In this document: positions 27,017 to 30,000 of the stretch, piece by piece
Layout: every line of letters starts with the position of its first letter
Position numbering within the stretch: the first letter of the stretch is position 1
Source of the DNA: Escherichia coli
Lineage (GTDB): Bacteria > Pseudomonadota > Gammaproteobacteria > Enterobacterales > Enterobacteriaceae
Assembly: GCF_003790525.1 (NCBI RefSeq)
Contig: NZ_CP033635.1
DNA: 64,000 nucleotides
Direction: 5' to 3' (one strand)
Made by a program: the position numbers and the translations under genes
Notes under the pieces: generated by a model
Seen by the model: only the letters and a program-made list of their open reading frames with translations
Told to the model about the DNA's origin: nothing
The model's database searches: none

Positions 27017-30000
27017 ATGGACGTCAGTCGCAGACAATTTTTTAAAATCTGCGCGGGCGGTATGGCTGGAACAACAGTAGCGGCATTGGGCTTTGCCCCA
27101 AAGCAAGCACTGGCTCAGGCGCGAAACTACAAATTATTACGCGCTAAAGAGATCCGTAACACCTGCACATACTGTTCCGTAGGTTGCGGGCTATTGATGT
27201 ATAGCCTGGGTGAAGGCGCGAAAAACGCCAGAGAAGCGATTTATCACATTGAAGGTGACCCGGATCATCCGGTAAGCCGTGGTGCGCTGTGCCCGAAAGG
27301 GGCCGGTTTGCTGGATTACGTCAACAGCGAAAACCGTCTGCGCTACCCGGAATATCGTGCGCCAGGTTCTGATAAATGGCAGCGTATTAGCTGGGATGAA
27401 GCATTCTCCCGTATTGCGAAGCTGATGAAAGCTGACCGTGACGCTAACTTTATTGAAAAGAACGAGCAGGGCGTAACGGTAAACCGTTGGCTTTCTACCG
27501 GTATGCTGTGTGCCTCCGGTGCCAGCAACGAAACCGGGATGCTGACTCAAAAATTTGCCCGCTCCCTCGGGATGCTGGCGGTAGACAACCAGGCGCGCGT
27601 CTGACACGGACCAACGGTAGCAAGTCTTGCTCCAACATTTGGTCGCGGTGCGATGACCAACCACTGGGTGGATATCAAAAACGCTAACGTCGTGATGGTG
27701 ATGGGCGGTAACGCTGCTGAAGCACATCCCGTCGGTTTCCGCTGGGCGATGGAAGCGAAAAACAACAACGATGCAACCTTGATCGTTGTCGATCCCCGTT
27801 TTACGCGTACCGCTTCTGTGGCGGATATTTACGCACCTATTCGTTCCGGTACGGACATTACGTTCCTGTCTGGCGTTTTGCGCTACCTGATCGAAAACAA
27901 CAAAATCAACGCCGAATATGTTAAGCATTACACCAACGCCAGCCTGCTGGTGCGTGATGATTTTGCTTTCGAAGACGGTCTGTTCAGCGGCTACGACGCT
28001 GAAAAACGGCAATACGATAAATCGTCCTGGAACTATCAGTTCGATGAAAACGGCTATGCGAAACGCGATGAAACACTGACTCATCCGCGCTGTGTGTGGA
28101 ACCTGCTGAAAGCGCACGTTTCCCGCTACACGCCGGACGTAGTAGAAAACATTTGCGGTACGCCAAAAGCCGACTTCCTGAAAGTGTGTGAAGTGCTGGC
28201 CTCCACCAGCGCACCGGATCGCACAACCACCTTCCTGTACGCGCTGGGCTGGACGCAGCACACCGTGGGTGCGCAGAACATCCGTACGATGGCGATGATC
28301 CAGTTGCTGCTCGGTAACATGGGTATGGCCGGTGGCGGCGTGAACGCATTGCGTGGTCACTCCAACATTCAGGGCCTGACTGACTTAGGCCTGCTCTCTA
28401 CCAGCCTGCCAGGTTATCTGACGCTACCGTCAGAAAAACAGGTTGATTTGCAGTCGTATCTGGAAGCGAATACGCCGAAAGCGACGCTGGCTGATCAGGT
28501 GAACTACTGGAGCAACTATCCGAAGTTCTTCGTTAGCCTGATGAAATCTTTCTACGGCGATGCCGCGCAGAAAGAGAACAACTGGGGCTACGACTGGCTG
28601 CCGAAGTGGGACCAGACCTACGACGTCATCAAGTATTTCAACATGATGGACGAAGGCAAAGTCACCGGTTATTTCTGCCAGGGCTTTAACCCGGTTGCGT
28701 CCTTCCCGGACAAAAACAAAGTGGTGAGCTGCCTGAGCAAGCTGAAGTACATGGTGGTAATCGATCCGCTGGTGACTGAAACTTCTACCTTCTGGCAGAA
28801 CCACGGCGAGTCGAACGATGTCGATCCGGCGTCTATTCAGACTGAAGTATTCCGTCTGCCTTCGACCTGCTTTGCTGAAGAAGATGGTTCTATCGCTAAC
28901 TCCGGTCGCTGGTTGCAGTGGCACTGGAAAGGTCAGGACGCGCCGGGCGAAGCGCGTAACGACGGCGAAATTCTGGCGGGTATCTACCATCATCTGCGCG
29001 AGCTGTACCAGGCCGAAGGTGGTAAAGGCGTAGAACCGCTGATGAAGATGAGCTGGAACTACAAGCAGCCGCACGAACCGCAATCTGACGAAGTAGCTAA
29101 AGAGAACAACGGCTACGCGCTGGAAGATCTCTATGATGCCAATGGCGTGCTGATTGCGAAGAAAGGTCAGTTGCTGAGTAGCTTTGCGCATCTGCGTGAT
29201 GACGGTACAACCGCATCGTCTTGCTGGATCTACACCGGTAGCTGGACAGAGCAGGGCAACCAGATGGCTAACCGCGATAACTCCGACCCATCTGGTCTGG
29301 GGAATACGCTGGGATGGGCCTGGGCGTGGCCGCTCAACCGTCGCGTACTCTACAACCGTGCTTCGGCGGATATCAACGGTAAACCGTGGGATCCGAAACG
29401 GATGCTGATCCAGTGGAACGGCAGCAAGTGGACGGGTAACGATATTCCGGACTTCGGCAATGCCGCGCCAGGTACACCAACCGGACCGTTTATCATGCAG
29501 CCGGAAGGGATGGGACGCCTGTTTGCCATCAACAAAATGGCGGAAGGTCCGTTCCCGGAACACTACGAGCCAATCGAAACGCCGCTGGGCACTAACCCGC
29601 TGCATCCGAACGTGGTGTCTAACCCGGTCGTTCGTCTGTATGAACAAGACGCGCTGCGGATGGGTAAAAAAGAGCAGTTCCCGTATGTGGGTACGACCTA
29701 TCGTCTGACCGAGCACTTCCACACATGGACCAAGCACGCGTTGCTCAACGCAATTGCTCAGCCGGAACAGTTTGTGGAAATCAGCGAAACGCTGGCGGCG
29801 GCGAAAGGCATTAATAATGGCGATCGTGTCACTGTCTCAAGCAAGCGTGGCTTTATCCGCGCGGTGGCGGTGGTAACGCGCCGTCTGAAACCGCTGAATG
29901 TAAACGGTCAGCAGGTTGAAACGGTGGGTATTCCGATCCACTGGGGCTTTGAGGGTGTCGCGCGTAAAGGTTATATCGCTAACACTCTGACGCCGAATGT

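Follow-up and report, generated by a model that had tools for sequence, protein, structure and literature searches.

The question raised by this locus is whether a TGA codon lying inside a long open reading frame of Escherichia coli ends a protein or is read as selenocysteine (Sec). In the window (the whole stretch of DNA analysed, 64 kb in length), the list of open reading frames contains two entries that share one frame, 27017..27604 (195 aa) and 27653..30064 (803 aa). Read directly from the window, the TGA at 27602–27604 is codon 196 of the frame 27017–30064 on the plus strand. Translation of this interval gives 1016 codons, with codon 196 as the only internal stop and the true stop at 30062–30064, i.e. 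a product of 1015 residues. The first-pass annotation of this DNA had joined the two open reading frames across an in-frame UGA at codon 196 into a product of 1015 aa, and it was exact in coordinates, codon number and length. We conclude that the UGA is almost certainly recoded, by means of a SECIS element, as Sec196 of FdnG, the catalytic subunit of the nitrate-inducible formate dehydrogenase-N (Fdh-N). The features discussed below are collected in Table 1.

The two parts of the frame fit a single protein family. The N-terminal piece matches positions 1–194 of the NCBIfam model TIGR01553 (formate dehydrogenase-N alpha subunit, an equivalog model), and the piece following the TGA, taken alone, matches positions 196–1009 with 1317 bits (the curated cut-off is 814). 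Since only one position is skipped between these matches, the TGA stands for exactly one position of the profile. In a PDB search, for which the fdnG translation carried Cys as a placeholder at codon 196, the product aligned near-identically over residues 1–1015 with 1kqf_A (1015 aa; title: 'formate dehydrogenase, nitrate-inducible, major subunit'), which has an X, i.e. a non-standard residue, at position 196 opposite the TGA. RefSeq has one fdnG CDS (WP_012311994.1) over the same interval in the near-identical E. coli SMS-3-5. The operon continues downstream with fdnH and then fdnI, and the product of the latter scores 487 bits with NF007558, the gamma model specific to Fdh-N, versus 268 bits with the Fdh-O gamma model. 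The gene at 27017–30064 is fdnG of E. coli, the name that it had been given before; TIGR01553, chain A of 1KQF over its 1015 residues and the downstream fdnH and fdnI all speak for it. Near its N-terminus FdnG carries an S-R-R-Q-F-F-K motif, which we take, from established knowledge of Fdh-N, to be tied to Tat export.

Table 1. Coordinates of fdnG, its UGA codon, the SECIS element and the downstream genes in the window
Feature	Coordinates	Strand	Basis or score
fdnG, formate dehydrogenase-N alpha subunit, 1015 residues, Sec at codon 196	27017..30064	+	TIGR01553, 1kqf_A, RefSeq
Tat motif S-R-R-Q-F-F-K, residues 4–10	27026..27046	+	Translation, by eye
Rfam RF01989 SECIS_3, model positions 1–59 of 59	27599..27657	+	84.3 bits, E 1.3e-19
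UGA selenocysteine codon (codon 196), next base C	27602..27604	+	X196 of 1kqf_A; TGA in homologs
Complete folded hairpin, lower stem out of register with the Rfam consensus	27604..27649	+	Minimum free energy −14.6 kcal/mol
Apical minihelix GG-U-AGCAA-GUC-UUGCU-CC, predicted SelB-binding part	27616..27633	+	Folds on its own; comparative evidence
fdnH, iron-sulfur beta subunit	30077..30961	+	TIGR01582, 482 bits; RefSeq annotation in SMS-3-5
fdnI, cytochrome b gamma subunit	30954..31607	+	NF007558, 487 bits; RefSeq annotation in SMS-3-5

An Rfam scan of the whole 64-kb window found a single family reaching its gathering score: SECIS_3 (gathering score 63 bits), whose match starts one codon before the UGA. 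Scored against the fdhF-type family SECIS_2 (RF01988), the same element reaches 28.8 bits, below the gathering score of 70 bits. The element 3' of the UGA is a genuine SECIS and belongs to the fdnG/fdoG type, not to the fdhF type. The earlier claim of a SECIS-like structure directly 3' of the UGA, within 27602–27650, is borne out by the SECIS_3 match and by the comparative evidence given below, with pairs spanning 27604–27649. A comparison with the fdhF/fdnG SECIS had also been suggested: the element scores 84.3 bits with SECIS_3 and 28.8 bits with SECIS_2.

The element also agrees on every point with the published bSECIS model, which describes a stem-loop directly 3' of an in-frame Sec-UGA and inside the coding region, with an apical loop of 3–9 nt, an upper stem of 4–16 bp, a G at loop position 1 or 2 (N1-G-[G|U]-N-N2, where N1 pairs with N2), a distance of 16–37 nt from the UGA to the apical loop, and a minimum free energy of at most −7.5 kcal/mol (PMC13188914). 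The fdnG apical loop has 3 nt (GUC, 27624–27626), or 5 nt (AGUCU) with the closing A-U pair included; A27623-G-U-C-U27627, in which the A and the final U pair, fits N1-G-U-N-N2. The upper stem has 7 bp (5 + 2 around a bulged U), and 19 nt (27605–27623) separate the UGA from the loop G. For SelB to bind, the upper stem needs a bulged U, and the loop needs a G and a U that are adjacent and unpaired (PMC8704476); the predicted fdnG structure has all of these (bulged U27618, unpaired G27624 and U27625).

Folding energy turned out to be a weak test of the element. RNAfold forms the hairpin directly 3' of the UGA in contexts of 41, 49, 59 and 141 nt, with minimum free energies of −11.9 (41 nt) and −14.6 (49 nt), down to −17.4 kcal/mol, over the 41-, 49- and 59-nt contexts. 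Its stability is, however, not distinguishable from that of dinucleotide shuffles (z about −0.77 to −2.21): for the interval 27602–27650, z is −1.45, and 19 out of 200 shuffles are as stable. The experimentally validated fdhF SECIS itself has a z of only −1.2, and the weak values for both elements show how little folding energy can tell here. RNAfold, which the first-pass annotation had put forward as the check, does return the hairpin in every context, but it discriminates poorly; as a discriminating test we set its stability values (z from −0.8 to −2.2) aside and relied on the covariance model and on covariation.

The lower stem of the fdnG SECIS is ambiguous in register. In the register drawn by Rfam, this sequence has two non-canonical pairs in the lower stem and −7.2 kcal/mol; shifted by one base, the stem is fully canonical and reaches −14.6 kcal/mol. 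Pseudomonas-type sequences favour the Rfam register, and across the homologs listed ∼83–84% of cells are paired in either register. A longer outer stem (27599–27601 with 27652–27654), which appears in the 59-nt fold, was dropped because its partner column varies freely across homologs with no compensation.

Evidence for selection on the RNA itself comes from a comparison across species. The search covered a single genome of each species; its pattern fixed only codon positions 1 and 2 and, at the UGA, allowed TGA, TGC or TGT. At least 121 loci matched, and the 121 matches listed span gamma-, beta- and alpha-proteobacteria, apart from one in a MAG with the label Desulfobulbus. The contrast between Sec and Cys that the pattern was open to did not appear: no locus with TGC or TGT is among the 121 matches listed, all of which have TGA. 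These matches contain 52 distinct 59-mers, and 40 of the loci have the exact 59-mer of the window.

The stem is built largely from the third positions of Gly, Pro, Thr, Val, Ala, Leu and Ala codons, so synonymous sites report selection at the RNA level. Over the 52 distinct 59-mers among the matches listed, 100% of the cells of the apical helix are paired, and two pairs covary at synonymous third-codon positions: pair 21–33 (third positions of Val and Ala codons) is G-C in 34, A-U in 16 and G-U in two, and pair 24–30 (third positions of Ala and Leu codons) is A-U in 36, C-G in 11 and G-C in five, with zero unpaired cells in both. These counts come from phylogenetically related sequences and, as the search pattern fixed most stem positions, only its N positions are informative for covariation. 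For the structure as a whole, 90–91% of cells are paired in this set of 59-mers from the matches listed, versus 25–53% when the 3' partners are slid by 1–3 columns. Neither the bulged U nor the loop G-U-C varies in the same 52 distinct homologs among the matches listed. The Thr codon ACG in the stem, whose G is paired, is unchanged in 113 of the loci listed; at flanking four-fold degenerate codons, 70–95% of the loci listed differ from the window. Within the species, 5368 out of 5433 E. coli records match the 76-nt SECIS region with an identity of 99% or more. An independent observation points in the same direction as the covariation: fdnG and its paralog fdoG share no identical stretch longer than the 71 nt at the UGA (27599–27669, starting 3 nt before it). 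The hairpin is clearly under RNA-level selection, and this comparative evidence, unlike stability alone, goes beyond chance and argues strongly for a SECIS.

Recoding also calls for the Sec machinery. The window itself contains no tRNA gene and no sel genes within its 64 kb, so we turned to SMS-3-5, which is 99.99% identical to it. There, tRNA-Sec (selC) lies at 4081340–4081434 (called by ARAGORN as tRNA-SeC with anticodon TCA), selB at 3989693–3991537, selA at 3991534–3992925 and selD at 1412305–1413348, and no pseudogene flag is attached to any of them. In the genomes nearest to the window, the sel gene copies are 100% identical to those of SMS-3-5. Among complete E. coli genomes, tRNA-Sec is found in 5424 out of 5426, selAB in 5425 out of 5426 and selD in 5425 out of 5426. 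The sister genome also encodes the other two E. coli selenoproteins, fdoG (with a SECIS_3 element) and fdhF (with a SECIS_2 element). With near relatives and the species as a whole covered in this way, the evidence that the host of the window has the machinery is circumstantial but very strong.

The window is nevertheless not the SMS-3-5 genome itself. Apart from a few point differences, the alignment of the two shows a 768-bp IS1 insertion at 6854–7621 of the window; an insertion sequence at this site is absent from every complete RefSeq E. coli genome. The window has an intact osmC, unlike SMS-3-5.

Three other explanations would leave the UGA or the hairpin without its proposed role. The TGA could be a true stop, either a nonsense mutation in a pseudogene or the end of a 195-aa gene followed by a separate 803-aa gene. 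Ab initio gene calls do show adjacent genes of 195 aa (180 aa on one contig) and 803 aa on three E. coli contigs, and both fragments exist as separate database proteins. A stop, however, would have to be shared by all 121 homologous loci listed, from three proteobacterial classes, and by the paralog fdoG, and to sit in a region so uniform among E. coli records; the two fragments are colinear with one family profile, and the solved protein is one chain of 1015 residues. Moreover, the 803-aa call begins at an internal Met 16 codons past the TGA and leaves conserved residues uncovered. We regard a true stop as effectively refuted. Read-through by a standard tRNA (e.g. near-cognate suppression by Trp or Cys tRNA), with a hairpin that only slows the ribosome or has no role, is about as improbable. 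The base after the UGA is C, and UGA followed by C is a leaky termination context, which counts in its favour. SECIS-independent read-through of ∼5–8% is known from fdhF reporters (PMC4513850). The element, however, matches a SECIS covariance model and is not a generic hairpin, and among the matches listed its bulged U and loop G-U stay invariant while the stem pairs covary; the complete Sec machinery is conserved in E. coli, and 1KQF has a non-standard residue at 196.

It could also be argued that the RNA is conserved without being functional, through constraint on the peptide U-H-G-P-T-V-A-S-L-A-P-T or through gene conversion between fdnG and fdoG. The active-site peptide is indeed invariant in the loci listed (partly by construction of the search pattern), and the run identical between fdnG and fdoG goes 20 nt past the hairpin, as gene conversion might produce. 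Constraint on the protein accounts neither for the compensatory synonymous changes at 21–33 and 24–30, with zero unpaired cells among the matches listed, nor for the synonymous G of ACG, which never changes in the loci listed, and we give this explanation hardly any credence. A fourth possibility extends the Sec reading instead of replacing it: the functional RNA signal may differ from the Rfam drawing, with the lower stem of enterobacteria shifted by one base and an extended or alternative 3' element, reaching 27669, that influences the efficiency of recoding. Perfect identity of the two paralogs, together with little synonymous change, does continue for ∼20 nt beyond the hairpin, up to 27669. 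Preferred codons, active-site constraint or gene conversion would explain both the shift of the lower stem and the identity up to 27669 equally well, and we consider such an extended signal unlikely, if less so than the three explanations above.

The preferred reading, recoding of the UGA as Sec196 through the SECIS element, suggests the following course of events, for which binding by SelB and incorporation of selenium are carried over from established work on E. coli. The mRNA directly 3' of the UGA would fold into the bacterial SECIS hairpin, and the C-terminal domain of SelB, together with GTP and Sec-tRNA(Sec) (anticodon UCA), would bind the minihelix at 27616–27633, probably through contacts with the bulged U27618 and the loop G27624-U27625. 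The ribosome would then melt the lower stem as the UGA enters the A site, where the tethered SelB, competing with RF2, could deliver Sec-tRNA(Sec); translation would go on to the stop at 30062–30064. In the finished enzyme, Sec196 would be the molybdenum ligand of Fdh-N, as in the 1KQF structure. On fdhF reporters, Sec insertion has an efficiency of about 30–40% (PMC4513850).

How such a gene fares in annotation depends on the pipeline. The exact 803-aa C-terminal product is indexed in 5480 blocks of a collection of public gene calls; the exact 195-aa fragment was looked up on contigs there and was not found. The latter does exist in GenBank (AYW30475.1 and RLY44390.1), where it is misnamed 'sulfate ABC transporter substrate-binding protein'. 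RefSeq/PGAP, on the other hand, annotates a correct full-length fdnG CDS. The first-pass annotation had stated that automated callers usually split the gene at this point: this describes the ab initio callers (195 + 803 aa), but 'usually' is too strong for curated pipelines, given the RefSeq/PGAP result. The same general problem of misannotation is described in a recent review (PMC13188914). Scanning SECIS_3 and SECIS_2 beside in-frame TGA codons would mend the split entries, and the fdnG locus can serve as a clean positive control for methods that detect RNA structure in coding sequences from synonymous covariation. The practical value of this Sec site lies in annotation quality; scientifically it adds nothing new.

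Indeed, the system is an ordinary one. Sec196 of E. coli K-12 fdnG and its SECIS were reported by Berg et al. in 1991, as cited in the review (PMC13188914). The UGA and SECIS of fdnG have been textbook material since then, and their description as known biology by the first-pass annotation is confirmed. Compared with K-12 fdnG (1KQF/1KQG), the codon number, the length of 1015 residues and the gene order fdnGHI are all equal. In the displayed part of the alignment, FdnG of the window differs from 1kqf_A at a few residues; for example, the allele of the window has E66, where K-12 and SMS-3-5 have D66 (nucleotide 27214 is A instead of T), and nothing functional is different.

A close relative is fdoG, the paralog for formate dehydrogenase-O, which also has TGA at codon 196. 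Its 59-nt element is identical to that of fdnG, and it likewise scores 84.3 bits with SECIS_3, although the two genes are only 74.5% identical overall (fdoG taken from the sister genome). The genomic contexts of the two genes are different: fdoG lies elsewhere on the chromosome, in the order fdoGHI-fdhE. The SECIS of fdhF (RF01988, SECIS_2) is experimentally the best-studied one in bacteria. Like the fdnG element, it starts right at the UGA; the two share the leading GUCUGACACGG as well as a GG/CC base and a bulged U, and G-U-C occurs in both loops. They differ in the apical stem and loop (UGCA-GGUC-UGCA in fdhF versus AGCAA-GUC-UUGCU in fdnG) and in the 3' strand of the lower stem, and the difference is reflected in their scores on SECIS_2: 87.1 bits for fdhF of the sister genome versus 28.8 bits for the fdnG element of the window. 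Presumably one SelB serves both the fdnG and the fdhF SECIS.

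A single nucleotide separates fdnG in the window from its counterpart in the sister genome SMS-3-5 (NC_010498.1): position 27214 is A in the window versus T in SMS-3-5. Residue 66 of FdnG is accordingly Glu in the window, versus Asp in both SMS-3-5 and K-12 (crystal structure 1KQF). The substitution is a conservative one within the N-terminal Fe-S domain and has no relation to the SECIS hairpin.

The GenBank entries AYW30475.1 and RLY44390.1 reproduce the 195-a.a. N-terminal fragment of FdnG (window 27017-27601) exactly, and EFN8991448.1 is nearly identical to it; all three entries are labelled 'sulfate ABC transporter substrate-binding protein', a name unrelated to FdnG. 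In SMS-3-5, the alpha subunit gene of fdoGHI-fdhE (NC_010498.1, 4379453-4382503; 39453-42503 of the stretch L134) is named 'fdnG, formate dehydrogenase-N subunit alpha' by RefSeq; this gene is fdoG, because its neighbors are fdoH, fdoI, fdhE and fdhD. A distant relative of FdnG, YdeP, is encoded in the same window (see the table).

Features of the window outside the fdn structural genes
Feature	Position	Strand	Description
IS1-like element	6854-7621	- (ORFs)	768 bp; InsA-like and InsB-like ORFs; 23-nt terminal inverted repeats
GC-rich hairpin	31623-31669		between convergent fdnI and yddM
yddM	31658-31942	-	HigA-family antitoxin; alone between fdnI and adhP
ydeP	63477-64000	-	FdhF/YdeP molybdopterin oxidoreductase family; window edge falls within gene

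The IS1-like element interrupts a GGDEF-domain (diguanylate cyclase) gene, leaving pieces at 7617..8135 and 6262..6867, and has an 8-bp copy of the duplicated target, AAAAAATA, on either side (6846-6853 and 7622-7629). Direct comparison with the window showed that SMS-3-5 lacks this insertion, and an insertion at this site was found in none of the 5426 complete E. coli genomes searched. Another difference concerns osmC (35885-36315, + strand): in the window it reads as one unbroken ORF of 143 codons, but RefSeq flags it as a frameshifted pseudogene in SMS-3-5, a genome otherwise 99.99% identical to the window. Either the two strains truly differ here or the older assembly contains a sequencing error.

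Elsewhere in SMS-3-5, an island of ∼11 kb lies directly 3' of selC, the tRNA-Sec gene (NC_010498.1, about 4081340-4092914, covered by 26340-30000 of stretch L005 and 1-7914 of stretch L003). It encodes a tyrosine integrase, a SIR2-family protein, a phage polarity suppression protein and a P4-type primase; the island is a P4-like satellite at the classic selC integration site, and its cargo is probably devoted to defence. Between about 1.4 and 2.0 Mb of the same chromosome (stretches L007 and L008), selD (1.41 Mb) is followed by fdnG on the - strand (1.70 Mb) and then by ychF/minCDE (1.96-2.0 Mb), the reverse of the K-12 order across the terminus region. Such an arrangement would imply a large terminus-spanning inversion.

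Downstream of fdnI, the GC-rich hairpin matches Rfam models on each strand, but weakly and below the threshold (e.g. STnc320, with 28.8 bits against a threshold of 50), and is most simply read as a predicted bidirectional intrinsic terminator. As for the adjacent yddM, a HigB-like toxin gene adjoins it in another E. coli genome (7156-7718 of stretch L131), whereas yddM in the window has no such neighbor; judging from this gene arrangement, the antitoxin of the window therefore looks orphaned.
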